Source: Candidatus Aenigmatarchaeota archaeon
GTDB lineage: Archaea; Aenigmatarchaeota; Aenigmatarchaeia; QMZP01; JAUXAV01
Assembly: GCA_030619735.1 (NCBI GenBank)
Contig: JAUXAV010000001.1
Location: 1-42,178 of the forward strand
DNA: 42,178 nt
Reading direction: 5' to 3'
In this document: positions 7,014 to 42,178 of the stretch, one piece after another
How positions within the stretch are numbered: the stretch's first letter is position 1
How the letters are laid out: every line of letters starts with the position of its first letter
Position numbers and translations under genes: made by a program
The notes under the pieces: model-generated
Database searches by the model: none
What the model saw: only the letters and a program-made list of their open reading frames with translations
Told to the model about the DNA's origin: nothing

Positions 7014-7113
7014 AATGGTTAATTTAAAGTCCTTCTATATATTCCATTACCCCAGCCTTCCTTTTATGATAGCGATGCTATTTTATAAGCTTTGCTGCAT
7101 ATTCAATAATGAA

Positions 7114-7151
7114 GTGAAGGTAATGAATGTTTACAGGTGAAGGTAATGAAT
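7114..7151 (+). repeat. Tandem duplication of the RBS/start region of the GT4 gene (GTGAAGGTAATGAAT x2, 23-nt period)
   Basis: GTGAAGGTAATGAAT occurs at 7114-7128 and again at 7137-7151. The first copy opens a 5-codon mini-ORF (ATGAATGTTTACAGGTGA); the second gives MNILILGS, the likely real start at 7146. Confidence 0.8.
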
Positions 7152-8273
7152 ATCTTGATACTGGGTTCGCTTTCGGCATGGGATGCTGTCACAGGCGGGA
7201 TGGAAAATTACATAACAGAGGTTTCGGAGCGGCTTGCAAAAAGGCACAATGTGCATGTCATAGTCAATAACAATGATAAAGGCAGCCTGAAATCAGAGGA
7301 AAAAATAAACAGGGTATCGGTCTATAGGCTGGGTTACAGCAGGATAGGGTTGAAAAGGATGCTAATCTACCCACTTGATTATTACAGGATTGCCAAAAAA
7401 ATAATTGAAGAAAACGATATTGAAATCATACATTCGCTTGCATCATATCCGATGGGATATATAGCGTGCAGGCTTGGTAAAAAATTCAACATACCCTCCC
7501 TTATCAGCATCAGGAACACCATCCCGAGCTATATGAACACTGTTTTTATAAAAAGGCATTTCCTGAATTACACGTTCAAAAATGCCACGGGCTTGCATAC
7601 AGCAAGTAATTATCTTAAAGAACAAGTGAAGTTTTTTTTCAGAAGGGAGGCGTTAACAGTTTATAACGGGGTTGACATAAAACCCCCTGGTTCTGGCACC
7701 AAAAAGAGGATAAGGAATAAATACGGCCTGAAATTCCCGACAATCATATGCGTTTCACACTATAGGCCACCACAGAAAAGGCAGGACATACTGGTAAGGG
7801 CTGGGAAAGGGGTAATCGAAAAGTACCCTGAAATGAAAATCCTGTTTATAGGCAGGGGGTTTTCAGAATCCATTTTAAGCCTGGCAAGGGGACTGGGACT
7901 GGATAATAACATTTTATTTTTGGGTGGAAAGCCCCGCAATGAAATCCCCCTTTATCTGTCAGTATCAGATGTTTTTGCGCTGCCTACCTTATTTGAGGGA
8001 TTGCCGAATGCTGTGCTTGAGGCACTGGCCATGGGTGTCCCTGTTGTGGCCACAAAAACAGGGTCGCTGCCAGAGGTGGTTGAAAATGATATTGACGGCA
8101 AACTTGTCCCTCTTAGCGCAGAGGGGTTTGCAGAAGGGATACTGGATTTGCTTTCAGACAGGAAAAGATTAAACACTATGGGCAGCAGCGGAGTAAGGAA
8201 AACCAGGAAATTCACCTGGGAGAACACCGCAAGGGGAATTGAAACTGAGATGATAAGACTGGTCAAGAAATAG
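7137..8273 (+). CDS. Glycosyltransferase, GT4 family; likely start ATG 7146
   Basis: 378 aa. LPTLFEGLPNAVLEALAMGVPVVATKTGSLPEVV glycos_transf_1 motif. Confidence 0.85.
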   Translation: MKVMNILILGSLSAWDAVTGGMENYITEVSERLAKRHNVHVIVNNNDKGSLKSEEKINRVSVYRLGYSRIGLKRMLIYPLDYYRIAKKIIEENDIEIIHSLASYPMGYIACRLGKKFNIPSLISIRNTIPSYMNTVFIKRHFLNYTFKNATGLHTASNYLKEQVKFFFRREALTVYNGVDIKPPGSGTKKRIRNKYGLKFPTIICVSHYRPPQKRQDILVRAGKGVIEKYPEMKILFIGRGFSESILSLARGLGLDNNILFLGGKPRNEIPLYLSVSDVFALPTLFEGLPNAVLEALAMGVPVVATKTGSLPEVVENDIDGKLVPLSAEGFAEGILDLLSDRKRLNTMGSSGVRKTRKFTWENTARGIETEMIRLVKK

Positions 8274-8495
8274 CTAACTTCCTTTCTTCATTCTGTAGTA
8301 AAGCATCTTGCTCTTTTCATATATTTTTCTGTCCAGAGGGAAGCCGAATATATTGTACCTTGTCCTGAACCTTGCAATTGTGCTGAATATCTCCTTTCCC
8401 AGGGACAGATTCTTCTGGCCTGAAAGCATGGTGTAGAACCATATGTCTGAAATGTTTTCGTTAAAATCCACCCAGGGGATGTTCCTGGATGACAC
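8274..8495 (-). pseudogene. C-terminal remnant of a B12-binding radical-SAM paralogue
   Basis: DIWFYTML...ARFRTRYNIFGFPLDRKIYEK parallels NMWFYKAIM...ARWKHRFFSFPFEYIFAEK at the C-terminus of the intact 500-aa paralogue (24784-26286). No upstream catalytic domain. Confidence 0.6.
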
Positions 8496-8506
8496 ATAAC
8501 CGAAGA

Positions 8507-9139
8507 CTAGCCTGGATTTTGCTTATCCCTTTTTTTTGCATAGACAATGAAACCTAGTGGAAACAGGTCGTCTTTAATATTTAATCTTGCTATTAAGGGA
8601 TTAAATATATTAAGGATTATTGCAGCTTTTCCTCCTACTAGCATGCCCCAGATGGCATGGAGCCTGTTTCCATATCCTTGTATTTCAACTGTACTGAATT
8701 TCCTAAAGAGATGCTCTAAAGAGTCTTTGGTGAATCTATAATAATCTTTTGGATCTGGATGATAGCTGTGTATGAATGGTGTGGAGAGGATGCAGATCCC
8801 CCCCCTCTTCAGTACTCTATGAATTTCGTTTACGGACTTCTGGGGTTCTTCCAAGTGCTCTATCACCTCGGTAGCGATGACTATATCGAAGTAGTTTGAT
8901 TTCCATTTTATGTCTTGTAGGTCACAGCAAATATCTGGATTGTGACTTTTCTCTATGTCTAATGTCATGTATTTCGTGTGTGGTATATGTTCTTTATAGG
9001 GGGACCCCTTTGCACCGACATCAAGGACTATTCCAGCTTTAAGTTGTTTGAAATAGTGTAACAACAATTTGTTTAAGCACAGCCTCGATGCACTTTTAAT
9101 TTTCAATGTCGGTGATTTTTTAAGTAGTTTTACTATCAT
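8507..9139 (-). CDS. Class I SAM-dependent methyltransferase
   Basis: 210 aa. Motif I VLDVGAKGS, FDIVIATEVIEHLEEP and LKRGGICILSTP. Markedly AT-rich: one 60-nt line at 8581 counts 17 G+C. Confidence 0.8.
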   Translation of the reverse strand: MIVKLLKKSPTLKIKSASRLCLNKLLLHYFKQLKAGIVLDVGAKGSPYKEHIPHTKYMTLDIEKSHNPDICCDLQDIKWKSNYFDIVIATEVIEHLEEPQKSVNEIHRVLKRGGICILSTPFIHSYHPDPKDYYRFTKDSLEHLFRKFSTVEIQGYGNRLHAIWGMLVGGKAAIILNIFNPLIARLNIKDDLFPLGFIVYAKKRDKQNPG

Positions 9140-9211: not shown

Positions 9212-9670
9212 CTAGAGGATTTTGTTCGCCTTTATCACTATATCCCTGGGATTAAGACCTGAAACTGATTCAACCTGAATATAAATTTGTTGGGGTTGCC
9301 TTTTATCTTTATCCCATTCCCGAGCGTGTCTAACCACATAGTCTACTGATTTGTCCCTTATGGTCTGTTCTGGGAAAAGCGAGGCATGCACGCCGCCCCA
9401 GACTACCGGCAGGTGAGGGTCCTTCTCCTTCACAATATCAGAGAGCCTCACGCCGTGGGCAATCTGGTCTGACATGGCTGTTATACCCACCATCTCTGTC
9501 TTGTTAATAAGGGATTTGAGAATGGATTCAGAATCCTCTATCTGGGAGTCAAGAATCCTTACCCTATGCCCTGCCCTGTGTAGAACCGTACCCAAATAAA
9601 GAAGGGACATGTAAAGGTTCACGGTTCCCTCCTCGCCCTTGGGGTTTATTATCGTTATATGCATCTGCAT
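9212..9670 (-). pseudogene. N-terminal B12-binding-domain fragment of a radical-SAM paralogue (no CX3CX2C core)
   Basis: The first ~113 residues (LLYLGTVLHRAGHRVRILD...VVWGGVHASLFPEQTI...VDYVV) align with the N-termini of the 490-aa and 500-aa B12-rSAM proteins. After ~9331 similarity is lost, and the ORF ends at 9212 without the Fe-S motif. Confidence 0.65.
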
Positions 9671-9760
9671 CTCCTATTAATCAAATATTAGTTAACTGCT
9701 GCAGAGATGTCTCTTGAAGTGTTACCTGTTTTATTGAGTAACCGGAGACAAGATATGCAG
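9663..9760 (-). repeat. Leader repeat, copy 1: conserved ~95-nt element forming the 5' leader and RBS of the radical-SAM fragment
   Basis: Shares with 28630-28725 the blocks ATATCTTGTCTCC, CAAGAGACATCTCTGCA (plus strand TGCAGAGATGTCTCTTG at 9700-9716) and TTAATAGGAGATGCAGAT directly abutting the ATG. Has an internal GTTAC/GTAAC hairpin at 9721-9742. Confidence 0.8.
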
Positions 9761-9819
9761 CCTCTATATATCAGCATATTTTTAAATAATATAAGCCAAT
9801 AACAAGAGTTGGTGGGATA

Positions 9820-11179: not shown

Positions 11180-11830
11180 ATGGATGTAATGGATGCCATA
11201 AAAAAGAGGAGGAGTGTGAGGAAATTCCTGGACAAGCCTGTGGAGGATGAGAAGGTAATGAGGCTTATAGAAGCTGCCAACTGGTGCCCTACTGCATCCA
11301 ATATGCAAGCATACAGGTTTATAATAATTAGTGACCAGAAACTGAAGGAGGAGCTGGTCCGGATTGGTGGTGCCAGTTTTATCAAGGATGCACCCCTGGG
11401 CATCCTGGTGGTATACAGTAATGAAACAGGGAATATTGAATACCAGGACTACATACAGAGCGCCTCTGCAGCAATCCAGAACATACTGCTGGCGGCATGT
11501 GATATGGGATTGGGGACCTGCTGGATATGCGACCTCCCACCAAAGGAAAGGCTGAGGGAGCTGCTGGGTATACCAAAGAATTATGACCCCATAGCATATA
11601 TTGCACTGGGCTATTATGATAAGCTGCCGGAGCCTGCGCCAAGGAAGCATGATATAGACGAGCTGATATCCTACAACAGCTTCGATTTCGAGGCGGGAAA
11701 GCAGAAATCCAGAAGGTTTATAGGCAGGATATACCAGAAGATAAAGCCTAGAAAAGATGACTACTGGTGCAGAAAATGCGGCCAGCTAATTGCAAATTGT
11801 AAATGTAAAAACAAGGGTAAGGGAAGCTGA
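11180..11830 (+). CDS. Nitroreductase-family flavoprotein with a C-terminal four-Cys tail
   Basis: AIKKRRSVRKF...PTASNMQAYRFIII... is the nitroreductase signature. Extra tail WCRKCGQLIANCKCKNKGKGS (CX2CX6CXC). Starts 4 nt after the preceding gene. Confidence 0.8.
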   Translation: MDVMDAIKKRRSVRKFLDKPVEDEKVMRLIEAANWCPTASNMQAYRFIIISDQKLKEELVRIGGASFIKDAPLGILVVYSNETGNIEYQDYIQSASAAIQNILLAACDMGLGTCWICDLPPKERLRELLGIPKNYDPIAYIALGYYDKLPEPAPRKHDIDELISYNSFDFEAGKQKSRRFIGRIYQKIKPRKDDYWCRKCGQLIANCKCKNKGKGS

Positions 11831-13193: not shown

Positions 13194-14666
13194 TTAATTT
13201 TGTTTTAACCTGTTTAGGGTATATACCTTTACAATTTTGTGCATTATTCTGCTGAAAAAGCTGCTCTTATTTGCATACCTTTGCTGCAGCCAGCTGAGCA
13301 TGGGAAGCTCAATGGGAAAGGAAAAATTCCTGTTTGACAATCTCCATTGAGGGATATTGCTTATTATTGGAATATTAAGATGCCTGAGTGCAATTATTTG
13401 GGAATACTTTCTTATCATATAGAAATTCCTTGCCTTCTTTTCGCTGTCCTTGCCAGACATCCATACAGGGTCTATTATGTTTTTCCACCTGTCCAGAAGA
13501 TACCAGTCTTCTGTTCTCTTTGGCTGGTTGAACCCCCTCTTTACAGCCAGGTCATACAAATCTGTTCCGGGGTAAGGCAGATACATGCCGATTGTATATC
13601 CAATCCTCGGATGAATTTCCGATAGCCGTAAAATAATGTCAATTGTCTTTCCGATTTCTTTCCATGTTTCTGTAGGCAAACCTATTAGAAAAGAGGCGCT
13701 GATATAGATATCCTTGTATTCTGACAATGTCTTGATTCCTTCTACAATATCCTTTGTAGTGAACTGTTTATTGATTAATCTTAAGACTTTATCGCTTCCT
13801 GATTCCAGACCGAAAAATAACCCTCTGCACTGTATATTTCTGAATTTATCAAGCATCTGCCTGGATATGTCCTTTATATTTGTGCCAACCTCCCAGGGAA
13901 GGTCTATTGCCGTGAGAATTTCCATTGCCCTTTTCGGATTTGAAAAGAAATTATCATCATAGAATCCTATCCCGTCAATGCCATGTTCATCTTTGAGCCT
14001 TTGTATTTCAGATATAACAAAATCTATTGAATGGGCTCTCCATATTCCCATGTTAAATCTCTTGTTGTAGCAGAATGTGCAGTTGTACGGACACCCTCTT
14101 GATGTTATAAATTTTATAACCCTTTTGCAATCCCATAAAGACAGATAATATTTTTTTATATCCACCAAATCCCAGTCCAGCCTGTAATCATCAAGATTCT
14201 TTATCAAGGGTCTTTGTTCTGTAAAAACCAATTTACCATTCTTTTTATATCCAATGCCCTTTACATCCTTGAAGCCCCTGCCCCTCTCTATTGCCTTTGC
14301 TAGCTCAACTATGGCTTCTTCCCCCTCCCCAGAAATAATGAAATCAATATATTTTTCACCCAGGGTCTGCTCAGGGACCAGAGATGGGTGTATGCCGCCC
14401 CATACTATTGGGATATTGCTTAATTTTCTAATCTCCCTTGACATCTGGGCTGAAAACCTTGTCTGGTTCCCTGTGAATACCGAGATGCCCACAAACAGGG
14501 GGTCCTTTCTAATTATACGCCTGGCACAACTTTCTATCTGGTCTGAGGGGCAATGAAAAACCTGAACATCATAACCTGCCTTTTTCAATGCATCACCCAG
14601 GTACAGCAGACTCAGTGGCGGGATGTTCATGTATTCTGGTGTGCTTATGTTTGTAAGCGCTATCAT
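13194..14666 (-). CDS. B12-binding-domain radical SAM protein (class B type)
   Basis: 490 aa. N-terminal cobalamin-binding-like domain (LLYLGDALKKAGYDVQVF...VWGGIHPS) followed by SRGCPYNCTFC (CX3CX2C). AT-rich: one 60-nt line at 13741 counts 18 G+C. Confidence 0.8.
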   Translation of the reverse strand: MIALTNISTPEYMNIPPLSLLYLGDALKKAGYDVQVFHCPSDQIESCARRIIRKDPLFVGISVFTGNQTRFSAQMSREIRKLSNIPIVWGGIHPSLVPEQTLGEKYIDFIISGEGEEAIVELAKAIERGRGFKDVKGIGYKKNGKLVFTEQRPLIKNLDDYRLDWDLVDIKKYYLSLWDCKRVIKFITSRGCPYNCTFCYNKRFNMGIWRAHSIDFVISEIQRLKDEHGIDGIGFYDDNFFSNPKRAMEILTAIDLPWEVGTNIKDISRQMLDKFRNIQCRGLFFGLESGSDKVLRLINKQFTTKDIVEGIKTLSEYKDIYISASFLIGLPTETWKEIGKTIDIILRLSEIHPRIGYTIGMYLPYPGTDLYDLAVKRGFNQPKRTEDWYLLDRWKNIIDPVWMSGKDSEKKARNFYMIRKYSQIIALRHLNIPIISNIPQWRLSNRNFSFPIELPMLSWLQQRYANKSSFFSRIMHKIVKVYTLNRLKQN

Positions 14667-16681: not shown

Positions 16682-16764
16682 AGGTCCTTGGCTGGGAACC
16701 AAGGATTTGGTTTGAGGAAGGCCTTAAAGGGCTGATAGAATATATAAAGAAGCGCGGGAATTAG
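16681..16764 (+). pseudogene. Orphan 3' tail of an SDR epimerase/decarboxylase gene (27 codons + stop), out of frame behind uxs
   Basis: Translation KVLGWEPRIWFEEGLKGLIEYIKKRGN* mirrors the true uxs C-terminus LDWEPKVSFEEGLKKTIEYFREGK. It starts at the last base of the uxs stop codon, in a different frame. Confidence 0.7.
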
Positions 16765-19335: not shown

Positions 19336-19518
19336 AAAGTGAAATATAAATGGACATCAAGGAATTGACACATATATAGACTTTAATAGAATAATTAGTA
19401 GGCGGCAATATAAATCTTCCTCAACCGGCACAATTCTATGCCAAGCTCCAATACACAGTTAATTATTTATACCCAGTAGTTGAAATAAATCTATCTATAA
19501 TAAGTTTTGGTAATTTGA

Positions 19519-33257: not shown

Positions 33258-33310
33258 TATATGTTTATAAAGGATTATATGAATAAAAGAGTGCTGAGGA
33301 GGTCAGTTGA

Positions 33311-34396
33311 ATGAAGGGTCTGATACTCGCAGGTGGCTTGGGAACAAGGCTGAGGCCGCTTACATACAGCGGTTCCAAGCAGCTGATACCTGTGGCGAAT
33401 AAGCCTGTGCTGTTCTACGGAATCGAGGACCTGAAGGAGGCAGGAATAAGGGACATAGGAATAATCGTGGGCTACACCGATGAAAGGGTACAGTTCATTA
33501 AGGATGCTGTGGGGGACGGCTCAAGATGGGGGGTGAAGATTACATACATAAGGCAGGACGCACCAAGGGGTCTGGCCCATGCGGTTACAACAGCAAGGGA
33601 TTTTATAGGGGGTGATGATTTTGTTGTTTATCTGGGGGACAATATACTGAACAAGGGGATAAGCAGCTTTGCTGAGGAATTCAGAAATTCGGATATGGAT
33701 GCAAGCATACTGGTCACGCAGGTGGAGCACCCGGAGATATATGGAGTGGCCATGATTGGCGATAACAGAGAGATAATAGAGATTGAGGAAAAGCCGGAGA
33801 ATCCCAAGAGCAACTATGCGATTGTCGGTGTTTATTTTTTCAGGTCCTCTATCTTTGAGGCAATCAAGAAGATAAAGCCAGGGAAAGGGGGCGAACTGGA
33901 ACTAACAGATGCCATCCATGAGCTGGTTGTTTCAGATAAGCACAGGGTGAATGCCCATGTTGTGAAGGGCTGGTGGGATGATACAGGAACAGCTGAGGCA
34001 GTGCTCCGTGCCAATCACCTCGTTTTGACCGATTTGAAAGCGAAGCGAGAGGGCATTGTAGAGGAGGGAGTGCGGCTCATTGGGAATGTGGCTCTAGGTA
34101 AGAATACGATTATTAAAGCGGGAACCTTGATACGTGGTCCGGTTATTATTGGGAAGGATTGCCAAATTGGACCAACATACTTGGGTCCATATACCTCCAT
34201 CGGGGATAACTGCGTCATCCGAGGTGGAGAGATTGAGTCATCAATTATCATTGGCGATACACACATCAATTTGGAAGCTAATAAACGGATTGTTGATAGC
34301 TTGATAGGGCGGCATACTATTATCAATTCGGCGAGAGAAACTTTGCCCAGCGGCTGCAAACTTGTCCTCGGTGAGAACTCGGAGGTACAAATATAG
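33311..34396 (+). CDS. rmlA: Glucose-1-phosphate thymidylyltransferase, long form with C-terminal left-handed beta-helix; chimeric codon usage
   Basis: MKGLILAGGLGTRLRPLTYSGSKQLIPVANKP plus hexapeptide-repeat C-terminus. The first 12 Arg codons are all AGG/AGA. Of the last 8, from codon 233 (34007) on, 7 are CGN. Confidence 0.8.
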   Translation: MKGLILAGGLGTRLRPLTYSGSKQLIPVANKPVLFYGIEDLKEAGIRDIGIIVGYTDERVQFIKDAVGDGSRWGVKITYIRQDAPRGLAHAVTTARDFIGGDDFVVYLGDNILNKGISSFAEEFRNSDMDASILVTQVEHPEIYGVAMIGDNREIIEIEEKPENPKSNYAIVGVYFFRSSIFEAIKKIKPGKGGELELTDAIHELVVSDKHRVNAHVVKGWWDDTGTAEAVLRANHLVLTDLKAKREGIVEEGVRLIGNVALGKNTIIKAGTLIRGPVIIGKDCQIGPTYLGPYTSIGDNCVIRGGEIESSIIIGDTHINLEANKRIVDSLIGRHTIINSARETLPSGCKLVLGENSEVQI

Positions 34397-34405
34397 AAGG
34401 AAACG

Positions 34406-34450
34406 CATATCTTAATAACTAGCGGCGTCGGCTTTGTCAGCTCTAATTTA
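34406..34450 (+). pseudogene. rmlB: Degenerate N-terminal Rossmann stub of rmlB (dTDP-glucose 4,6-dehydratase)
   Basis: Translation HILITSGVGFVSSNL versus the canonical (I/V)L(I/V)TGGAGFIGSNL; two Gly of GxxGxxG are now Ser. No start codon. Sits where rmlB normally starts, behind rmlA. Confidence 0.45.
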
Positions 34451-34504
34451 AGAAATGAAGAAAAGGTTCCTGCACAAGGGCCGTGGGGCCGGAGGTATCA
34501 AAGG

Positions 34505-35617
34505 ATGACAAGGATTTGGGACATTGACGTAAAGCAGTTCCGTACCGGGGAGAAGATTCTTAGACATCCCGGGCGCTTAAGGGAGTGGTTGGACGGTCGC
34601 AATCCCTTTCCCATTATGGTGGAATTTGACATGACCAATGTATGTAATCACCGGTGCCCGGAGTGCATAGCCAACCACTATCGCAAGGTCGATCGTGTTT
34701 CGCTCTCCGGTGACTTAGCGAGGCGGGTGATATCGGAAATGGCCGAGGGCGGACTGAAAGGCATATCCTTCACCGGTGGTGGCGAGCCCTTTTGCAACCC
34801 TGATACTTGCGAGACGATCCGCTGGGCGAAGAAGTGCGGGCTGGACGTGGTCGTAGTCACCAATGGCTCTCTCTTGGACGACGCTGTGTGTGAAACCATA
34901 GTTGAGAATTGCATAGGTATCGCCGTCTCCTTGGATGCGGCCACGCCGGAGACATTCCGGAAAATGCATGGTAGGGGAGCCAAGCATTTCTTTCATGTCG
35001 TGGCAAACATTCGCCGACTTGCTGAAGCGAAGCAGAGGGTGGCCAGCAACTGTAGCGTCGGTCTGGCCGTGTTGACCTGCGATACAACAAAACCGGATAT
35101 GGTGGCTGCAGCGAAACTGGCGAAGGAGGTGGGGGTGGACTATGTGCACTTCCGGCCCCTAATGATCCACCGCGGAGGCCAGTTCAAATACCACTGGCCC
35201 GATATGGAAAAGGAGCTCGAAGCGTGTCTAGACTTGAGGGAGCCGGGAAGCTTCGATGTGCTTTTCTCCAAGGACAAGTATCTCTCTATTCGGGAGGTGA
35301 ACTTTGGTCGTAGTTACGGCCGTTGCTTCGGACACCAATTTGCCGGCGCCGTTTCTGCGAACGGGAAAGTGTATCTGTGTTGCCACCTGAGGGGCTATCC
35401 CCAGTACGATCTTGGAGATTTGCATAACCAAAGTTTTCGTGACATCTGGAATGGAGAACGCAGACGCCAGGTCATAGCCAGTATTGACTTCCATGATTGC
35501 ATCCCGCTCTGTCGCTGCAACGCGTTCAATAAAGTGCTATGGGAGATATGGAACGACCCTTCCAGCCTCGATGCGCGGATTCTTGAGATGCCCATTCCCC
35601 ACGAGAACATACTGTAG
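34505..35617 (+). CDS. Radical SAM protein with SPASM/twitch-type C-terminal Cys motifs
   Basis: 370 aa. MTNVCNHRCPEC (CX3CX2C), SFTGGGEP (GGE SAM-binding motif). C-terminal CFGHQFAGAVSANGKVYLC fits CX12GX4C, followed by DCIPLCRC (CX3CXC). Confidence 0.8.
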   Translation: MTRIWDIDVKQFRTGEKILRHPGRLREWLDGRNPFPIMVEFDMTNVCNHRCPECIANHYRKVDRVSLSGDLARRVISEMAEGGLKGISFTGGGEPFCNPDTCETIRWAKKCGLDVVVVTNGSLLDDAVCETIVENCIGIAVSLDAATPETFRKMHGRGAKHFFHVVANIRRLAEAKQRVASNCSVGLAVLTCDTTKPDMVAAAKLAKEVGVDYVHFRPLMIHRGGQFKYHWPDMEKELEACLDLREPGSFDVLFSKDKYLSIREVNFGRSYGRCFGHQFAGAVSANGKVYLCCHLRGYPQYDLGDLHNQSFRDIWNGERRRQVIASIDFHDCIPLCRCNAFNKVLWEIWNDPSSLDARILEMPIPHENIL

Positions 35618-35654
35618 GCAGGGAGCGGCTGTTCCCCAATTATTAGAGCTAAGG

Positions 35655-35918
35655 ATTCTTGGTAAAGTAATAAACATTGGTAGCGGAAGATATACAAATG
35701 TGATTACAATTGCGAGATTGATTCTGGACTGTATGAATAAGCCAGAATCTTTGCCCCAGCACGTTAAAGATAATAGACCAGGGCATGTTAGGCAACACTT
35801 AGCCTCTAATGATAAAGCTGAAAGGCTTTTGGACTGGAAGGCAAGGACAAGGTTTGAAGATGCCTTGAGGGAAACCGTTAACTGGTATCGAGAGAATGAA
35901 TGGTGGTGGAAGGCTTAG
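35655..35918 (+). pseudogene. rmlB: C-terminal ~87-codon remnant of rmlB (dTDP-glucose 4,6-dehydratase)
   Basis: GKVINIGSGRYTNVITIARLILDCM...VKDNRPGHVRQHLASNDKAERLLDWKARTRFEDALRETVNWYRENEWWWKA matches the RmlB C-terminus (YNIG..., DRPGHD.RYA.D..K....LGW.P...FE.GL..TV.WY..N..WW). The upstream part of track ORF 35484-35918 overlaps the radical-SAM gene and is not homologous. Confidence 0.75.
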
Positions 35919-36874
35919 TCTTCCTGTTCTTTTCTTGCAGGCATCCTGAACCAGATGAGCATGCCTATTATGCCCAAGAGTATGTGTCCAACAAAGAGTA
36001 TGACAAGGGAGAATGAGATGGCTGATTCTGCTGTCAGGTGAATGAATGCAAAGAAGAGCACCAGTGCAGCATCCCTTGTGCCTATGCCTGAAAGTGAGAC
36101 GGGCAGGGCCTCCAGGAGCATGGTAATGGGGGTTATCATCAGCAGGAACTGGAAGGGAAGTGTGATGTTCAGGGCCAGAGCCATGAGGTAGTACTGGAAT
36201 ATTGTAAGGAGCATGGCTATTATTCCCAGAACAGTTGAAACAATTATAATGGTTTTTCTGTTCCTCATAATCCCCAAACCCTTGTAAAAGTCATTGAATA
36301 CTGTACCTAGCTTCGGCTTGTATCTGTCCGGAATCATGGCCCTGAAGAAGGGCCTCAGAATCCGGATGACAAACCCCTTCCTGGTAAGGAGGAATACAAA
36401 CAACAGGAATAGGATGAAAATAACCACTACTGACAGGAGCAAATCAAAATATCCTGCGTAAAACGATGCGAAGAATACTATCCCTATCAGGGCCAGGGAG
36501 AACAGGACAATAACGTCTATGATTCTGTCCACCATAACGGTTGTCAGGGACTTGCCCAGGGAGGTCTTCTCCCTGAGGTAATACGCCCTGTAAAAATCCC
36601 CAAGCCTGCCAGGGGTTATAAGGCTCACGGAATAGCCGACCAGCCAGGCCCCAATGGATTTTATAAAGGGATAATCGATATTATATACCTTCATGAGCAT
36701 CTTCCATTTGAATGCCTTTACTGCAATTATAGGGACTATAAAAATGATGGAAATGGAGAGGTAGAACATGTCTGTGTTTTTCAGTATGCTGAGTATTTCT
36801 AGCAGGTTCATGTTCCAGATTATATACAGGAACAGCACAATACCTATTACTGGCAGAAAAATCTGAAGCTTCAT
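35915..36874 (-). CDS. Flippase-like membrane protein (UPF0104 / lysyl-PG-synthase TM-region family)
   Basis: 319 aa, ~8 TM segments. AVKAFKWKMLM, LITPGRLGDFYRAYYL and LPVSLSGIGTRDAAL are typical of this family. Confidence 0.65.
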   Translation of the reverse strand: MKLQIFLPVIGIVLFLYIIWNMNLLEILSILKNTDMFYLSISIIFIVPIIAVKAFKWKMLMKVYNIDYPFIKSIGAWLVGYSVSLITPGRLGDFYRAYYLREKTSLGKSLTTVMVDRIIDVIVLFSLALIGIVFFASFYAGYFDLLLSVVVIFILFLLFVFLLTRKGFVIRILRPFFRAMIPDRYKPKLGTVFNDFYKGLGIMRNRKTIIIVSTVLGIIAMLLTIFQYYLMALALNITLPFQFLLMITPITMLLEALPVSLSGIGTRDAALVLFFAFIHLTAESAISFSLVILFVGHILLGIIGMLIWFRMPARKEQED

Positions 36875-36975
36875 ATTCCTATTAGGGGGTTTCTTATTAA
36901 AAAATGGATTGTTTCAGGGCTCGGTATATTTAAAACAGAAAATTGTAAATAGATACAAACTCCAAGGGGTGGAAT

Positions 36976-38469
36976 ATGGATAAGAAAAGGCTGATAATAG
37001 CCATTGTTCTGATGCTTCTGGCGCTCGCGTTCGTCTTCAGGACCATTAATCCCCATCTCAATCCTGCCACGCATGTGAATGTGCATGGGGATGAAGCAAG
37101 GGTGCTGACCATAGCCAGGAATGTGGCAGAGAGGGGGCAGTATGCATACAGTGAGGGCCTGTCCGAGTATGAGCTCTCGCTTCCCAATGCCTTTTGGACA
37201 GGGCCCCTGACTATTTATACCCATGCAGTATTTTTCTTTTTATTCGGCTCCACATATGCCGTGGCACGGCTGACCGTGGCGCTCTTCGGCTTTATATGCA
37301 TCTACTTGATGTATCTGATAACAAAAAGGATATACGGGAAGAAGGCCGCCATCATATGCGCGGTGCTGGCTGCCCTGAACCCTTTGTTTGCATTCTACAG
37401 CCGCGTGGCGCTGCATGACATACTGTGCTACATGTTCTTTTTGATTTCGGTTTATCTGGCGCTGGATATTGAGAATAGGACCAGGCTCAGGATGGCCCTG
37501 ATAGGGGTGTGCGCTGCCCTGGCTAGCATCTCAAGATACAATGGAATTATAATTCTGCTGGTTATGGTTATTTATTTCGCATATACCAGGAGGCGGAAGT
37601 TCCTGATGGATTTGCCATTCCTTTTAATTCCGTGTTTCTTGGTCTTCCTGGGATTCTATTTCTGGCTTGTCTACAATGGATTTTTTGAACTCTTTACAAG
37701 AACGTTTTTTGGTGATATGTTTGAAACAGGCATCATGGCAAAGACCGGGCTTATGGCATATTACGGCATCATAGCCGTGCTGCAGGTCCTTGTCAAGTAT
37801 GCCCCCTTCCTGCTGGTTGGCACTGTTGCCGGTCTACTCGTTATATACAAGCGAGGGTTCGTGAGCAGGCAGGAGAAGCTTATCCTGATATGGATGATGG
37901 TGGGGTTTGCTTGGTGGCTCCAGTCATATGCCTCAGGAAAATACATGCTAGCCTTCACCTTCCCCATGTTCATCTTTGTGTCCGGAGCCCTGATGAAGGT
38001 GATAAAGAAGCCAGTATTCAGGCTTGACCATAGGCATGTTATGGTCTTTCTTGGTGTATTGCTGGTTGCATATATTGCAGTGAATCTGGAGGCCACCTAT
38101 GACATAAGGGATGATTCAGTATACAACGCGGCTGCTATCATAAAGGCCTCAGAAGAGAGGATATTATTTGCAGAGCCGCCCCTGGCATTTGTTTCAGGAA
38201 AATCAAAGCTCTCGCACTATTGGAATGACTCCTACAGGCATTGGGTAAGTTCAGAGCTTCATCTTGAAATGTTCTATGACCCACCAAATAACCAATCCAT
38301 TTATGATTATCTGGAAAGGACAAAACCAAGATACATAATGCTGAGTTCCAAGTTCCCTGTCAAAAGTGCAACGCCAAGAAAGGAGTTCAACCATTATATA
38401 GATTTGTATGGAAAGGTCAAAGAAGAGATTGGTTCATACATTCTTTATGAACTAAGTTGGCCTGAATAA
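36976..38469 (+). CDS. GT-C fold membrane glycosyltransferase (ArnT/PMT-like) with C-terminal soluble domain
   Basis: 497 aa. N-terminal anchor then HGDEARVLTIARN first-loop motif, more than 10 hydrophobic segments, soluble tail ending SYILYELSWPE. Confidence 0.7.
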   Translation: MDKKRLIIAIVLMLLALAFVFRTINPHLNPATHVNVHGDEARVLTIARNVAERGQYAYSEGLSEYELSLPNAFWTGPLTIYTHAVFFFLFGSTYAVARLTVALFGFICIYLMYLITKRIYGKKAAIICAVLAALNPLFAFYSRVALHDILCYMFFLISVYLALDIENRTRLRMALIGVCAALASISRYNGIIILLVMVIYFAYTRRRKFLMDLPFLLIPCFLVFLGFYFWLVYNGFFELFTRTFFGDMFETGIMAKTGLMAYYGIIAVLQVLVKYAPFLLVGTVAGLLVIYKRGFVSRQEKLILIWMMVGFAWWLQSYASGKYMLAFTFPMFIFVSGALMKVIKKPVFRLDHRHVMVFLGVLLVAYIAVNLEATYDIRDDSVYNAAAIIKASEERILFAEPPLAFVSGKSKLSHYWNDSYRHWVSSELHLEMFYDPPNNQSIYDYLERTKPRYIMLSSKFPVKSATPRKEFNHYIDLYGKVKEEIGSYILYELSWPE

Positions 38470-38540
38470 TAAATCCCTTTTGATGTTGGAGCAGGCGGTA
38501 TAGTGGGTTTCTAATATAAATATAAACAGTCTAAAAGCAA

Positions 38541-39278
38541 ATGATTGGTATGAAAAAGGGAAGGTATAGCATATCGGCGTTTTTCCCTATATACAATGAT
38601 GAGTGCACTGTAAAGAAAATGGTAATGGATGCGCTGTCTGTTTTGAGAACCATTACAGATGACTATGAGATTATACTGGTGGATGACTGCAGCATTGACA
38701 AATCAGGCAGGATAGCTGACAGCCTGGCGAAAAAATACAGGCAGGTCAGGGTTATGCATCACAGGAAGAACAGGGGCTATGGTGGTGCGCTCAAAACAGG
38801 CATTACCAGTGCAAGGAAGGACCTGATATTCTACACAGACGGTGACGCCCAGTATGATGCCAGGGAGCTGGCAAAGCTCTACCCGCTTATAGGGAATGCG
38901 GATGTTGTGAATGGCTACAAGATAAAGCGCCATGATGTCCTCTACAGGATAGTCCTGGGGCGGCTCTATAATGCATTCGTGAAGGTCATGTTCCATATGA
39001 AGATAAGGGATATAGACTGTGATTTCAGGCTTTTCAGGCGGAGAGTTTTTAAGGATATAACACTGGAGTCGAATAGTGGCGTAATCTGCGTGGAGATGAT
39101 GAAGAAGATTCAGCTGACCGGTGCCAGGATAGCAGAGGTCCCGGTTCATCACTACGAAAGGGTTGGAGGGGTCTCACAGTTCTTCAAGGTAATGAAGATA
39201 TCTAGTGTGTTTCTGGGGCTGGCCAAGCAGTGGTGGAAGCTCATGGTTGTTAGGAAGTTGCAGGAGTTGGCGGGATGA
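38541..39278 (+). CDS. GT2 glycosyltransferase, polyprenyl-phosphate sugar synthase-like (start may be ATG 38550)
   Basis: ISAFFPIYNDE, LVDDCSIDKS, YTDGDAQYD. 4-nt overlap with the next SDR gene. Confidence 0.8.
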   Translation: MIGMKKGRYSISAFFPIYNDECTVKKMVMDALSVLRTITDDYEIILVDDCSIDKSGRIADSLAKKYRQVRVMHHRKNRGYGGALKTGITSARKDLIFYTDGDAQYDARELAKLYPLIGNADVVNGYKIKRHDVLYRIVLGRLYNAFVKVMFHMKIRDIDCDFRLFRRRVFKDITLESNSGVICVEMMKKIQLTGARIAEVPVHHYERVGGVSQFFKVMKISSVFLGLAKQWWKLMVVRKLQELAG

Positions 39279-40267
39279 AAGGGCTTGATAGTTTCAATGG
39301 GAAGAATGTGATGATTACAGGAGGGCTGGGATTTATAGGAAGCAACCTTGCGCATGAGCTGGTCAGGCTAAATTCCAATGTGCTGATTGTTGATTGCCTA
39401 CTGCCGGAATGCGGGGGTAACAGATACAATATCAGGGGGATTGAGGACAGGGTCCGGGTGGAGAATGCTGATATCAGGGACGGGCCCAAGATAGGCAGGC
39501 TTGTTAAAGGCCAGGAATATATATTCCATCTTGCTGCCCATCTGAGCCATATAAACAGCGTGAAAAATCCGATTCTGGATTTTGATATAAACTGCAGGGG
39601 AAGCCTGGAACTGCTGGAAGCCTGCAGAAAATACAATCCGGATACAAAGGTGGTATATACAGGGACAAGGGGACAGTACGGGAAAATAGAATATACTCCT
39701 GTGGATGAGAAGCATCCCATACAGCCCACTGATATGAATGGTGTCAATAAGCATGCTGCAGAGCAGCATCATCTCCTATACCACAGGCTTTACGGGCTCA
39801 GGACAGCCTCGCTGAGGTTGACCAATGTGTACGGCCCAAGGCACCAGATGAGGCACAGTGAGCAGGGGTTTGCCGGCTGGTTTATCCGGCTGGCAATGGA
39901 TAATAAGAAGATAAAGGTGTTCGGGGACGGGAAGCAGCTCAGGGACCTGAATTATGTTGATGATGTGGTGTCAGCGCTGCTGGCCCTGGCCCTGGAAAGG
40001 AAATCATATGGGGAGGCCTTCAATATAGGGGGGATAAAGCCGGTCAGCATACTGGAGTTTGTCAAAAGCCTGATAGAGGTAAGCGGCTCTGGAAGCTATG
40101 AACTGATTCCCTTCCCGGAGGAGGAGGGCAGGATTGAGATAGGGAGCTATGTGGCGGATTTCACAAAGCTAAGGAAAGTGACTGGCTGGGAGCCGAAAAC
40201 CCCCCTGAAGGCAGGGCTTGAGAAAACTGTCCGATTCTACAGGAAGTGTAAAGGGCACTATTGGTAG
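39275..40267 (+). CDS. Extended SDR (NAD-dependent epimerase/dehydratase family) with NxxxK in place of YxxxK
   Basis: VMITGGLGFIGSNL. PTDMNGVNKHAAEQHHLLYHRLYGL aligns with P.S.YG.SK.A.E.....Y....GL, with Asn at the catalytic Tyr position. Tail TGWEPKTPLKAGLEKTV. Confidence 0.65.
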   Translation: MKGLDSFNGKNVMITGGLGFIGSNLAHELVRLNSNVLIVDCLLPECGGNRYNIRGIEDRVRVENADIRDGPKIGRLVKGQEYIFHLAAHLSHINSVKNPILDFDINCRGSLELLEACRKYNPDTKVVYTGTRGQYGKIEYTPVDEKHPIQPTDMNGVNKHAAEQHHLLYHRLYGLRTASLRLTNVYGPRHQMRHSEQGFAGWFIRLAMDNKKIKVFGDGKQLRDLNYVDDVVSALLALALERKSYGEAFNIGGIKPVSILEFVKSLIEVSGSGSYELIPFPEEEGRIEIGSYVADFTKLRKVTGWEPKTPLKAGLEKTVRFYRKCKGHYW

Positions 40268-40339
40268 TCCAGGTGGTATTGTGAAGCATGAGATAAGGAA
40301 GCGGATTCTCAGACTCAGGGAAAAAGCATATTTATAAAA

Positions 40340-40624
40340 CTATGGCTGGTCCGGATTCTGCGACAGGAGAAATCTTCTTATCAGGAGGTAGGCAAGGATG
40401 GTGCCGATTATGTATGCTATTATCATGGAGATTATTGTGCCGTAGAGGCCATGGAACTGTATCAGAAACCAGGCAGTTACTGTATTGATTGAAACCGTTA
40501 TAATCTCGGACAGGGAGCTTATTTTCACCCCTGATATGCCAAAGGATGCTGCAAACCACATGTATATGTTATGCACCATTGCTATCAGGCCTGCCAGTAC
40601 AAACAGCATAAGCATGGGAGAAAA
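40340..40624 (-). pseudogene. Orphan duplicated 3' end (~91 codons) of a Wzx-type flippase gene
   Basis: MLMLFVLAGLIAMVHNIYMWFAASFGISGVKISSLS...GLYGTIISMIIAYIIGT parallels the last ~91 residues of the adjacent flippase (MLLLFVFAGLITSVHLLYIWFAASFGIRGVKISSLS...GLYGAILSMIISYTIGT), roughly 60 percent identical by eye. An in-frame stop lies immediately upstream. Confidence 0.75.
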
Positions 40625-40687
40625 TCAGATCATGGCGTCATTTTTTCTATCTATTCACAAGGTTTATTGATAGTATGAAGTAGTTAT

Positions 40688-42004
40688 TTATTCTATAAAC
40701 CCTTCCTCCTCTGGAGAAAACACAGACCTTATCCTAAAGTAGATATAGAGTGTGCCGATTGTATAGGATATTATCATGGATAGTATGGCCCCGTAAAGAC
40801 CGTATGATGGTATTAGCAACAGGGCTGTTATTATGTTTGCTATACATATTATTCCCACTGATAGGGAGCTTATCTTTACGCCTCTTATCCCAAAGGATGC
40901 AGCAAACCATATATAGAGCAAGTGCACTGATGTTATAAGGCCAGCAAATACAAAGAGAAGGAGCATGGGGATTATGAAGGTATAATCACTGCCATAGAGG
41001 AAGAGTACAATAGAGGACATGACAAAAAGCAATATATAGAATATTGGGGAGAATTTTAGGAGCTTGTTCATTTGGGAGAAGATTATGGCCTTCTTTCTGT
41101 ACATGGAGGATATGGGGAAAAAGACCATTACGAATCCGGTCACAAAGAACGATGCTACTGTGAGTGTGGAATAGTAGTAGGCCTGGTACATACCCACATC
41201 ACCTATTGAAAGGAAGATGTTAAGGAATATCTTGTTTAATGCACCTATGGTGGAGAGTGATATGGTTCCCAGGATGGCTATAAGGCTATATTTCATCAGG
41301 ATCTTTGACCATTTTCTGCTCAGCACCGGCCTGAGGTATTTCCTGATGTCCGGCCATGTAGGAGCTGCTGCAAGCAGATAGCCTATTATTACGGATATTA
41401 TGGGTATTATTGCTGTTCTTGTGTAGAGGTAAAGGATAATGCTTATAATCAGCACGGAAAGGCTCCATACAACATTCAGCGCTCCGAGCTTTTTCATCTT
41501 GTTCATGCCCTGGCATACCTTCTGGGCAAGGGTCCATATGTTCATGCCAACAGCCATTACTATGGCTGCAAACATATAGGGAAGGTTTATAGAAAAGGCT
41601 GTGGCAAGGGGCACGGAGAGGAGATAAAACAATAGTGCGAATATGATGGTTGATACAGCCATCAGTATAACGCTTGTGGATAGTATCTTTGCTTTGTCCC
41701 TTTCACTCCTTGTAGATGTAAAGTATTTCACCATGGCCGTGCCTATGGAGAGATACATAAATGTCCATAGTATATTTGATATGGAACAGACAAGGGCAAA
41801 CCTCCCGTACTCTATCCTGCCAAGTAGCCTGCCGCTCATTATCTGAAAGAGGAGGGAAAAGACCTTTGAGAGCATAAGGCCAGAGAAGACAAAGCCCAGG
41901 CCCTTTATGAAATTCCTGGTGACTGGCCCAGGCTTTTTTCTGAATATCAGGGCATAGAAAAAGAAAACAATTACCCAGAATAATTTCTTTAATTTTTCCA
42001 ACAT
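40688..42004 (-). CDS. wzx: Oligo/polysaccharide flippase, MOP superfamily (Wzx-like)
   Basis: 438 aa, ~12 hydrophobic segments. SGRLLGRIEYGRFALV near the N-terminus is typical of polysaccharide-biosynthesis (Wzx/RfbX) proteins. Confidence 0.75.
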   Translation of the reverse strand: MLEKLKKLFWVIVFFFYALIFRKKPGPVTRNFIKGLGFVFSGLMLSKVFSLLFQIMSGRLLGRIEYGRFALVCSISNILWTFMYLSIGTAMVKYFTSTRSERDKAKILSTSVILMAVSTIIFALLFYLLSVPLATAFSINLPYMFAAIVMAVGMNIWTLAQKVCQGMNKMKKLGALNVVWSLSVLIISIILYLYTRTAIIPIISVIIGYLLAAAPTWPDIRKYLRPVLSRKWSKILMKYSLIAILGTISLSTIGALNKIFLNIFLSIGDVGMYQAYYYSTLTVASFFVTGFVMVFFPISSMYRKKAIIFSQMNKLLKFSPIFYILLFVMSSIVLFLYGSDYTFIIPMLLLFVFAGLITSVHLLYIWFAASFGIRGVKISSLSVGIICIANIITALLLIPSYGLYGAILSMIISYTIGTLYIYFRIRSVFSPEEEGFIE

Positions 42005-42178
42005 CAGATCACTTTATATATTATAAAGACATCCTGACCCTTAAATTGAACCTTTTTGTAGACAGGAAGATTGGAGTTTACCCATTGGTATAATTCGCTG
42101 TTAAATTTATATCCAGGCCACCAGGTCAGTATCCATTTTGGATCGCCTGTCTCAAGGAATGATATGTCTATGGGTCCC
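42004..42178 (-). CDS. C-terminal end (58 codons) of a further GT-C-type glycosyltransferase; continues off the right edge
   Basis: Not in the ORF track. The minus-strand frame is open from the edge: ...GPIDISFLETGDPKWILTWWPGYKFNSELYQWVNSNLPVYKKVQFKGQDVFIIYKVI*. The ...VFIIYKVI ending matches the RIFIIYEVSQ / VVLIIYKLEAEA tails of the GT-C paralogues. Its TGA overlaps the flippase ATG (TGATG). Confidence 0.55.
   Translation of the reverse strand, partial: GPIDISFLETGDPKWILTWWPGYKFNSELYQWVNSNLPVYKKVQFKGQDVFIIYKVI

Follow-up and report, generated by a model that had tools for sequence, protein, structure and literature searches.

A surface-glycan island of an uncultured small-genome archaeon is a patchwork, probably built by recombination gene by gene

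We analyzed a 42,178-nucleotide stretch of DNA (the window, on contig C91) from the metagenome-assembled genome (MAG, 1.48 Mb) of an uncultured archaeon with a small genome, whose order-level relatives have genomes of about 1 Mb. Its part from 7 to 42 kb is probably the variable portion of an island, at least 49 kb long, for the biosynthesis of cell-surface glycans. According to Pfam, the left flank holds the uL16 N-terminus, dcd, a nucleotidyltransferase gene on the plus strand, mdh, nadC and nadE, followed by GT4a and asnB. The features considered here are as follows.

1–7013 (−): conserved left flank, from Pfam; GC 0.482, as in the genome
7114–7151 (+): duplicated ribosome-binding site and start, two exact 15-mers 23 nt apart start to start
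8277–8522 (−): C-terminal remnant of a B12-binding radical-SAM gene, from tblastn with the full-length orthologues of G032 and G017
8507–9139 (−): AT-rich class I methyltransferase in place of the radical-SAM core, Pfam Methyltransf_11
9212–9670 (−): N-terminal remnant of the radical-SAM gene, its B12-binding domain only, from orthologue alignment
13194–14666 (−): AT-rich B12-radical-SAM gene between ugd and a nucleotidyltransferase gene; GC 0.399, 4th percentile
16681–16764 (+): orphan SDR 3' tail right behind the stop codon of an intact SDR gene
17731–20238 (both strands): AT-rich block, from GC, of the GT-C gene GTC1 (−) and a CDP-alcohol phosphatidyltransferase gene (+)
23666–23827 (−): N-terminal GT-C stub, first membrane helix and first loop, from a match in relative G017
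31499–31825 (−): GT-C gene collapsed in frame to its N-terminal ~75 and last ~33 residues, from a match to GTC1
31890–32153 (+): C-terminal third of a class I methyltransferase without the SAM-binding domain, from phmmer
32154–40267 (+): 8-kb module common to relative L137 (DegT, rmlA, broken rmlB, GT-C, GT2, SDR)
33968–34395 (+): recombination tract, the 3' third of rmlA, 95.3% identical to the CGN-rich distant lineage L136
34406–34459 (+): probable N-terminal stub of rmlB, its Rossmann motif decayed, from weak similarity and position
34505–35617 (+): CGN- and CpG-rich radical-SAM/SPASM gene in the middle of rmlB, from Pfam and composition
35604–35918 (+): RmlB C-terminal remnant, its last 59 nt 93% identical to L136
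35915–36874 (−): gene for an LPG_synthase_TM membrane protein, lacking at this position in L137
40340–40615 (−): orphan flippase 3' tail, 91 codons in open frame, from similarity to the neighboring flippase
40688–42004 (−): intact Wzx-type flippase gene, GC 0.418
42010–42178 (−): 3' end of a further GT-C gene that runs on into contig C252

The nadC–nadE pair adjoins a glycan island in relatives G017, G021, G024, G033 and G036, that is, the island keeps its position among core genes. Comparison of the locus with relatives, which the first-pass annotation had proposed, revealed that it varies among them: a ugd–NTPtr2–SDR1 core is kept at 51–68% identity, the remainder differs in each relative, and breaks of synteny with the closer relative L137 fall at scar positions. 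Different gene content serves an equal function among the order-level relatives, as in replacement islands, and L137 differs by single genes at about 77% nucleotide identity. Identity to the G017 counterpart reaches 77% for SDR3, compared to 54–56% for the flank genes. Many paralogues lie within the island, and a structured 95-nt leader that ends in a ribosome-binding site and start codon is found in three copies, in the island only. At the right end, contig C252 continues the island with an exact 118-nt overlap with the window end; contig C239, whose flank is 86% identical to L137, is a candidate for the right boundary. The GT-C enzymes of the island are of the PMT_2 type, and the oligosaccharyltransferase AglB was found neither in nor beside it, the sole STT3 match in the genome lying on contig C63; on these grounds we rejected an archaeal N-glycosylation (agl) cluster.

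The eight scars that the first-pass annotation had listed all matched intact counterparts, five of these within the window; the radical-SAM tail, the methyltransferase stub and the GT-C stub were significant only against full-length genes from relatives. The 15-mer GTGAAGGTAATGAAT of the duplicated start has exactly two copies in the 1.48-Mb genome, at 7114, where it opens a 5-codon ORF, and at 7137, where it opens GT4b. In the gutted radical-SAM gene, positions 9664–9317 correspond to residues 8–124 of the 495–501-residue B12-radical-SAM orthologues in relatives (50% identity, E 1e-39); this homology stops near 9317, and the ORF is ended by an in-frame TAG at 9212–9214. Positions 8522–8277 correspond to residues 408–493 of the full-length orthologues in G032 and G017 (tblastn, E 4e-12 and 8e-9). 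The methyltransferase that has taken the place of the core (GC 0.379, 3rd percentile) is 38% identical to a methyltransferase of the G017 island. The G024 orthologue of the same radical-SAM gene is broken independently, with a frameshift near residue 139 and nothing past residue 220. The B12-radical-SAM gene at 13194–14666 has no counterpart between ugd and NTPtr2 in G017, G027, G033 and G036, where ugd, NTPtr2 and SDR1 abut.

The orphan SDR tail comprises 27 codons and a stop and shares 58% identity with the final 24 residues encoded by the SDR gene ending at 16681 (E 2e-5 against all genome ORFs; dN 0.35 and saturated dS against the intact tail). Similarly, the flippase tail shows 57% amino-acid and 73% nucleotide identity to residues 347–433 of the flippase just upstream (E 2e-23), and this intact flippase at 40688–42004 is presumed to be the incoming allele. 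The GT-C stub at 23666–23827 had no significant match inside its own genome and is 50% identical to residues 10–53 of a 539-residue GT-C in G017 that has the same neighbors, SDR3 and a GT2. In the collapsed GT-C (GC 0.474, host-like), residues 21–75 correspond to residues 31–79 of the GT-C at 17731–19335 (56%) and residues 76–105 to its residues 504–533 (40%); about 425 codons are gone with the frame preserved, and 4 nt at its end are shared with the start of the following gene. For the methyltransferase stub, Pfam, in-genome BLAST and hhalign gave no significant match, and phmmer against 1.8 billion proteins aligned its residues 12–86 to the C-terminal 75 residues of Methyltransf_23 enzymes of 241–257 residues (E 1.6e-11). 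Since dS between the fragments and the intact copies is saturated and dN is 0.28–0.45, the fragments stem from functional genes that diverged long ago rather than from recent duplication in place.

The clearest junction lies in rmlA, which is a chimera produced by a homologous crossover at about 33965–34005, switching from an L137-like 5' part to an L136-like 3' third. The 5' part is 82% identical in DNA to L137 and the last 428 nt are 95.3% identical to L136, a lineage otherwise only about 67% identical. At the protein level, P0185 and P0186 share 86% and 58% identity, respectively, with the N-terminal part and 55% and 97% with the C-terminal part. Arginine codon usage changes as well, from AGR in 12 of the first 12 to CGN in seven of the last eight (Fisher P 1e-4); the mean CGN fraction of arginine codons in L136 genes is 0.51. 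The two tracts overlap in a stretch of about 45 nt that is conserved in the window, L136 and L137 and provides a homologous anchor. Ten nucleotides past the rmlA stop, at the position where rmlB starts in both L136 and L137, begins the probable rmlB stub, a weak match by itself (E 3e-4 locally, 0.07 genome-wide). The RmlB C-termini of two relatives match the remnant at 35604–35918 with 42–45% identity (E 4e-20). The radical-SAM/SPASM gene between them has named relatives in bacterial glycan clusters (about 50% identity), and relatives from the order reach only 25–27%.

The 8-kb module shares 72–82% identity with L137 over 32160–34020, 37014–38413 and 38518–40267 (blastn). This synteny (32,160–40,267) stops at the methyltransferase stub on one side and the flippase tail on the other and is also broken at the rmlA/rmlB lesion, with single-gene differences between the breaks. 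In L137 the module sits at another site, and the orthologous flanks of that site adjoin on contig C239, which thus represents the empty site. There, a 9.5-kb block in L137 is flanked by a 26-nt direct repeat that is present in a single copy at the empty site (C239:3597); no flanking repeat was found at the ends of the window's own block.

Composition is heterogeneous along the island. The genome has a GC content of 47.8%, and 17731–20238 has a GC of 0.33 and a GC3 of 0.37 (1st and 6th genome percentiles); the GTC1 family is rare, and its best relative, 54% identical, lies in an island with 37–41% GC. The genes at 8507–9139 (GC 0.38) and 13194–14666 (GC 0.40) are more mildly AT-rich (3rd–4th percentile). 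In 34505–35617, CGN accounts for 0.70 of arginine codons and CpG observed/expected is 0.98 (95th–97th percentile), and this patch begins abruptly within rmlA near 33,970. In composition, the inserted genes stand apart from the stubs on either side. Measured against the genome, the heterogeneity described in the first-pass annotation therefore holds, as one 33% GC block, two milder AT-rich genes and one CGN/CpG-rich patch. The two G+C spot counts given there (34 and 37 of 60) were reproduced exactly, but both are local maxima and do not reflect the host average.

Six-frame searches of C91 and C252 detected no integrase or transposase, as had been claimed, with no match to Phage_integrase, TnpB or DDE_Tnp_1; neither contig carries tRNA genes or Rfam families. 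The island thus shares with replacement islands the lack of an integrase, a transposase and a tRNA site. About 15 Phage_integrase matches lie on other contigs of the MAG. Under one uniform criterion we counted three fragments in 48 kb of island and eight in 798 kb elsewhere, a modest enrichment of about six-fold (P ~0.02) in a MAG that is fragmented and includes some redundant contigs.

We consider it likely that the island was built by recombination, as a patchwork exchanged gene by gene or module by module without an island-encoded recombinase. About a dozen modules of 1–8 kb would form this patchwork, swapped one gene or module at a time. Homologous crossovers would fall inside conserved sugar-nucleotide genes, as shown for rmlA. 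Non-homologous joins, possibly with a homology anchor at the other end (homology-facilitated illegitimate recombination), would insert an incoming gene into a resident one or next to it, with the ends of the resident gene staying behind. The SDR and flippase orphan tails would be such ends, as would the remains of the radical-SAM gene around the methyltransferase and those of rmlB around the radical-SAM/SPASM gene. Plain deletion would explain the collapsed GT-C as well as the methyltransferase and GT-C stubs. The donors would have been low-GC relatives for the AT-rich class and a CGN-preferring archaeal lineage for the CGN class, and the radical-SAM/SPASM gene would trace ultimately to a family that is otherwise bacterial. 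As a result, the set of sugar-modifying and -transferring enzymes, and hence the surface glycan, would be altered. A search for a strain-level relative found none, and from the one haplotype to hand we infer the order of events and the parental junction sequences.

The rmlA crossover, the L137 synteny breaks at scars and the variable islands of relatives bear out the earlier proposal of recombination-driven turnover without a local mobility gene. That proposal had also derived the orphan tails from crossovers within conserved gene termini, which does not stand: such a crossover would yield a chimeric gene, as in rmlA, and not a tail beside a complete homologue. Orphan tails and gutted genes therefore need at least one non-homologous join or deletion, so homologous and illegitimate recombination, which had been jointly invoked, are both active, together with deletion. 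The orphan tails could also come from deletion of one of two adjacent paralogues without any incoming allele.

Extended to the whole island, the latter idea becomes reductive decay, in which the deletion bias of a small genome trimmed once-tandem paralogues (two flippases, two SDRs, several GT-Cs and methyltransferases) to stubs with no incoming DNA. The richness in paralogues and the independently broken G024 orthologue are in keeping with it, and the collapsed GT-C, methyltransferase stub and GT-C stub are most simply deletions. However, decay leaves unaccounted for an rmlA chimera with a 95% tract to a distant lineage, foreign-composition genes lying, twice, between both ends of one resident gene, and a block at different sites in two relatives, and we consider it unlikely as the sole process. 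An assembly or binning artefact, with co-occurring organisms mixed in one contig and some scars being false joins, might be suspected in a MAG of 348 contigs where 118 of 577 contig ends have 141-mers in common with another end and some redundant contigs are 77–97% identical to one another. Two assembly switches between co-occurring organisms are formally possible for 33,97x–35,9xx. Yet the fragments, 40–73% identical to intact copies, are too diverged for shared k-mers, the L137-like and L136-like tracts overlap by less than 50 nt against a final k of 141, L136-like DNA is absent elsewhere in the bin, and L137-like synteny resumes past the patch, so that two false joins would be required. Such an artefact is extremely improbable.

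Alternatively, one of the many tyrosine recombinases of the genome might act in trans and move cassettes through site-specific or short-homology (Campbell-type) integration that duplicates the junction sequence. The 26-nt repeat around the L137 block, the 15-nt duplication at 7114/7137, the Phage_integrase matches elsewhere and the island-only leader speak for this, but no recombinase gene lies in or beside the island, the window's block lacks a flanking repeat and the scars are heterogeneous, with no common junction motif. Moreover, the 26-mer is just the intergenic promoter-like spacer of the target site, and the leader lacks attC-like core sites and ends in a ribosome-binding site plus start codon. 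We regard this explanation as very improbable. A more specific version is also very unlikely: whole glycan modules such as the 8-kb block would relocate as circular intermediates, helped by one of the ~15 tyrosine recombinases encoded elsewhere, integrating by very short junction homology or at a specific site and duplicating 15–26 nt of the target. If true, small-genome archaea would have a cassette system for surface-glycan genes that works with an integrase in trans, which would explain the lack of mobility genes in such islands.

The recombination-built patchwork we favor has known parallels. Replacement flexible genomic islands for surface glycans include the O-chain and glycosylation islands of Alteromonas, Pelagibacterales and Haloquadratum walsbyi (PMC4033161, PMC4535781, PMC11898729). 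The present island resembles them in its fixed position between core genes, its equivalent function encoded by different genes in relatives, its deviant, mostly low GC, and the absence of integrase and transposase with homologous recombination implicated. It has been reported that such islands are exchanged whole through crossovers in their flanks (PMC4033161, PMC4535781, PMC11898729). In contrast, turnover here is piecemeal within the island and has left many internal hallmarks.

Bacterial O-antigen and capsule (rfb, cps, K) loci are mosaics with gene remnants and recombinant rml genes. Reeves and co-workers reportedly described mosaic rfb loci in Salmonella and E. coli, and Bentley et al. 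in 2006 are said to have covered the pneumococcal cps loci. Remnants at module borders, low-GC central genes, junctions inside conserved rmlA/rmlB-type genes and turnover of flippases and glycosyltransferases are common to both, whereas the island differs in its archaeal host, its GT-C/PMT_2 transferases, B12-radical-SAM genes and LPG_synthase_TM proteins, the lack of IS elements and H-repeats, and the location of AglB elsewhere, on C63. Homology-facilitated illegitimate recombination has been described for Acinetobacter and Streptococcus pneumoniae. In line with it, the rmlA–rmlB event has one end as a homologous crossover in a conserved gene, and neighboring lesions, judged from one haplotype, appear to be non-homologous joins truncating resident genes; these truncations would fit a second junction at a few bases of microhomology. 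Integron gene-cassette arrays have reportedly been found in archaea by Ghaly et al. in 2022, and they share with the island single-gene units that differ in composition and are inserted in one orientation, together with gene families that span domains; unlike them, the island has no IntI-type integrase, attC-like sites or common junction, and resident genes are disrupted rather than appended to. We rejected an integron or other site-specific cassette array, as C91 and C252 lack Phage_integrase, the sole recurrent element is the 5' leader and the block ends carry no repeat. The island is a detailed example of a known process, that of replacement glycan islands and O-antigen-like mosaics, rather than an element of a new kind.

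The way in which replacement glycan islands diversify has been described as unclear, because their boundaries usually lack recombination hallmarks (PMC4033161). Here, one 35-kb stretch has preserved an unusually full record. A homologous crossover can be mapped and its donor lineage identified, foreign genes have replaced the cores of two genes, two orphan tails and three deletion stubs remain, and one module occupies different sites in two relatives. The locus thereby supplies concrete junctions for population sequencing. Taken together, the record indicates that the surface-glycan toolkit of a small-genome archaeon is rebuilt gene by gene, partly with genes closest to bacterial ones. In organisms believed to be attached to other cells, such glycans may play a part in recognizing partners and viruses.

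The window is one entire contig (C91), the longest of its metagenome-assembled genome (MAG; 1.48 Mb, 348 contigs, 82% complete). The host is an archaeon; at its rRNA locus the archaeal SSU and LSU models score best. Relatives among species genomes (genome sizes 0.5-1.9 Mb) are found at the order level only. The 16S rRNA gene (contig C7, 144-1846) spans 1703 nt against a 1478-position model, with ~225 nt of insertions. Positions 1-4020 of the window hold housekeeping genes (the uL16 N-terminus, dcd, a nucleotidyltransferase gene, mdh, nadC and nadE), followed by GT4a and asnB. From 7014 on, all genes belong to sugar-nucleotide synthesis or glycan assembly, and comprise the following types:

SDR epimerases/dehydratases, DegT aminotransferases, nucleotidyltransferases, ugd, cupin, GNAT and methyltransferases
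B12-binding radical-SAM enzymes, one radical-SAM/SPASM enzyme, and GT2, GT4 and GT-C/PMT_2 transferases
a Wzx-type flippase, an LPG_synthase_TM protein and a CDP-alcohol transferase

The right end of the contig overlaps exactly, over 118 nt, a second contig (C252) that adds 13.5 kb of the same gene kinds, and the island is therefore at least 49 kb long. At the left end, positions 1-141 are the exact reverse complement of positions 1-141 of contig C74; 118 of the 577 MAG contig ends share such 141-mers, which indicates that these are branch points of the assembly graph. Some MAG contigs are 77-97% identical copies of other contigs. The MAG contains no copy of either the island or its flank from another strain, an exact look-up of asnB gave no identical match, and a metagenome scan with asnB recovered relatives only, at ≤53% identity. 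Strain-level sequence was not found, and a single haplotype underlies the analysis.

The first-pass annotation had named eight gene fragments or duplications in the island as scars. Five of these match intact copies in the window, and the rest were traced through an exact repeat or through full-length genes of relatives. The 108-aa collapsed GT-C matched N- and C-terminal pieces of GTC1, the AT-rich GT-C gene at 17731-19335 (E 5e-12 and 1e-3), and the 91-aa flippase tail is 57% identical to the intact flippase in amino acids and 73% in nucleotides (E 2e-23). Matches were also obtained for the SDR tail at 16681 (E 2e-5 against all genome ORFs) and for the SDR C-terminal piece at 35604-35918 (E 8e-8 against intact copies in the window), and the B12-only ORF matched the N-terminal domain of two intact paralogues. 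At the duplicated start a 15-mer stands in two exact copies 23 nt apart, the only 2 in the genome. The rmlB N-terminal stub is weak as a similarity, but it lies precisely where rmlB begins in two relatives (L136 and L137, below).

In-genome BLAST and Pfam gave no support for the radical-SAM tail or for the stubs of the GT-C and methyltransferase genes, and these were settled with full-length relatives. Alignment of the methyltransferase stub to five methyltransferases with hhalign was not significant, and its search in the order's genomes returned noise only; among 1.8 billion proteins, this 87-aa ORF matched the final 75 residues of class I methyltransferases 241-257 aa in length (E 1.6e-11). 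On one other contig the homologous gene is split into ORFs of 147 and 95 aa. In the order-level relative G017, a 539-aa GT-C whose gene sits between orthologues of SDR3 and a GT2, the neighbours of the stub here, matches the GT-C stub over residues 10-53 with 50% identity. With 495-501-aa orthologues from the relatives G032 and G017 as queries, the gutted radical-SAM gene was recovered as residues 8-124 at 9664-9317 and residues 408-493 at 8522-8277, its ~285-residue catalytic core being replaced by a 38%-GC methyltransferase gene. One in-frame TAG (9212-9214) parts the B12-domain ORF from the methyltransferase ORF, which lies 24 codons downstream in the same frame; with a probability of 1 in 3, the shared frame may be a coincidence. 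A third relative, G024, holds an independently broken orthologue of this gene (L092/L106, C1 ~37.7-38.4 kb), with a frame shift near residue 139 and nothing left past residue 220.

No additional fragments emerged when ~2,200 ORFs of relatives served as queries. By one uniform criterion, and after filtering for contig-end truncations and redundant contigs and removing one masking artefact from the island, fragment density was 3 in 48 kb in the island versus 8 in 798 kb elsewhere (P ~0.02). The 117-codon ORF at 36871-37224 (minus strand) was rejected as a gene; it is the antisense reading of GTC3, a GT-C gene, over that gene's conserved 5' end, and the same antisense frame in L137, a contig of one relative (GCA_053536695.1), is 50% identical to it.

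One gene of the island, rmlA, is a chimera of two lineages. Its arginine codons are AGR in 12 of 12 cases up to 33944 and CGN in 7 of 8 from 34007 (Fisher P 1e-4), and a negative correlation links how closely 120 RmlA homologues match residues 1-228 (the N part) and how closely they match the C part. Thus P0185, the homologue on L137, has 86% N-part and 55% C-part identity to the window RmlA, and for P0186, the homologue on L136 (a contig of a second relative, GCA_004196255.1), the values are 58% and 97%, respectively. At the nucleotide level, 33297-34020 is 82% identical to L137 and 33968-34395 is 95.3% identical to L136, the 5' part of whose rmlA is only 67% identical to the window; the two tracts overlap over a conserved stretch of ~45 nt, the crossover zone. 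L136 also has a 93% match to the final 59 nt of the rmlB remnant. In both relatives an intact rmlB starts 0-3 nt after rmlA, and the RmlB C-terminal piece of the window is 42-45% identical to these proteins (E 4e-20). Mean CGN use per arginine codon is 0.51 in L136 genes (0.88 in rmlA) and 0.11 in L137 genes, which resemble this genome. At least part of the CGN-rich patch is therefore explained by DNA of an L136-like lineage. The radical-SAM/SPASM gene had no match in a scan of a genome-contig collection; it is 25-27% identical to homologues in the order and ~50% identical to proteins named from Omnitrophica, Sumerlaeaceae and Desulfamplus, which lie in Wzm/Wzt-type polysaccharide clusters.

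The three compositional classes proposed from the bare sequence are real, since shifts in composition coincide with gene or stub borders; the CGN-rich patch instead starts inside rmlA. GC content is 47.8% in the genome (SD 4.9 points in 1-kb windows), 48.2% in the flank and 44.3% in the island. The extreme outlier is the 17.7-20.3 kb block only, where GTC1 and the CDP-alcohol transferase gene (17731-20238) have 33% GC and a GC3 of 0.37, which rank at the 1st and 6th percentiles among 941 background ORFs. The inserted methyltransferase gene (38% GC) and B12rSAM1, the B12-radical-SAM gene at 13194-14666 (40% GC), fall at the 3rd-4th percentile, and the radical-SAM/SPASM gene, with CGN at 70% of its 30 arginine codons and a CpG observed/expected ratio of 0.98, lies at the 95th-97th.

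Comparison with relatives bears out the proposed turnover and shows that the locus is not static. Collinearity between L137 and the window extends over DegT2, the 5' part of rmlA, GTC3, GT2c and SDR5 (72-82% nucleotide and 69-78% amino-acid identity), beginning at the DegT2 start, right after the methyltransferase stub, and stopping at the SDR5 stop codon, 72 nt before the flippase tail. Within this block rmlB is whole in L137 and gutted in the window, LPG_synthase_TM is present only in the window, and a B12-radical-SAM gene only in L137. There the block is placed between an SDR gene and a GT2 gene whose orthologues are adjacent on C239, another contig of the MAG. The 26-nt direct repeat GATTAYGCARGGGATTTAAATGYTTT bounds the 9.5-kb DegT-to-SDR block in L137 (8465-8490 and 18009-18034), and the same spacer is single at the unoccupied orthologous junction (C239 3597-3622); no boundary repeats were found around the window's block (32154-40267).

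Order-level relatives carry a glycan island beside nadC-nadE, in which a ugd-nucleotidyltransferase-SDR core is contiguous (51-68% identity) and the gene set outside the core differs. In the window this core ends at the orphan SDR tail, and the AT-rich B12rSAM1, encoded on the opposite strand, separates ugd from the nucleotidyltransferase gene. SDR3 (22594-23646) is 77% identical to its G017 counterpart (G017:C45:44755-45789) versus 54-56% for nadC, nadE and ugd, an excess suggesting that island genes have been exchanged laterally within the order. The two genomes differ in how SDR3 is oriented relative to the GT-C. The nitroreductase at 11180-11830, which follows a 451-aa alpha-toroid protein, has 216 aa in the window and 420-441 aa in two related islands, L122 (16351-17676, a fusion with a methyltransferase domain) and L094 (1606-2868).

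Consistent with the absence of transposase and integrase genes reported in the first-pass annotation, six-frame searches of both island contigs gave no match to integrases, TnpB or DDE transposases, and no tRNA gene or Rfam family was found at the island. Elsewhere the MAG has ~15-18 tyrosine-recombinase (Phage_integrase) matches and 2 TnpB-like genes, on contigs C190, C308, C189, C24, C260, C232, C157, C184 and others. A ~100-nt leader occurs in three copies, only in the island:

9655-9771, minus strand, leader copy
28621-28739, minus strand, leader copy
30556-30662, minus strand, leader copy

Its two conserved helices are TGTCTC/GAGACA, which encloses a variable hairpin, and TCTGCAT/ATGCAGA, which adjoins the ribosome-binding site and start codon; it matches no Rfam family. 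The leader precedes the B12 remnant and DegT1, and the remaining copy falls within the predicted GNAT ORF, making the start or history of that ORF doubtful. We rejected the reading of this repeat (95 nt) as an attC-like site because it folds as a 5' leader ending in a ribosome-binding site and start codon.

Synonymous change between fragments and their intact counterparts is saturated, with dN of 0.28-0.45; the fragments descend from separately evolving functional genes. A tandem duplication was rejected for the flippase tail, as the 72-nt spacers that follow the flippase and its tail show no relationship (54% identity, the level of shuffled sequence) and dS is saturated. Recombination within conserved gene termini, the mechanism first proposed, holds for the intragenic crossover in rmlA but not for the orphan tails, since such a crossover yields a chimera. 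An orphan tail beside a complete homologue requires a non-homologous join or the deletion of most of a neighbouring paralogue, and two gene ends around a foreign gene likewise require such a join or a deletion. It is unlikely that the joins were produced by an assembly chimera. Taken together, these comparisons show that homologous recombination in conserved genes has shaped the island; illegitimate or homology-facilitated illegitimate joins were probably a second process, and deletion a third. At the collapsed GT-C, the contrast between its host-like 47% GC and the 33% GC of its 56%-identical intact homologue suggests that the resident copy collapsed after an imported GT-C had taken over.

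The island belongs to a known kind, that of replacement-type surface-glycan islands (PMC4033161, PMC4535781) and mosaic O-antigen and capsule loci. It stands above the average in how many scars a single stretch holds, in having relatives that can be identified as donor-like and recipient-like, and in its relocated module.
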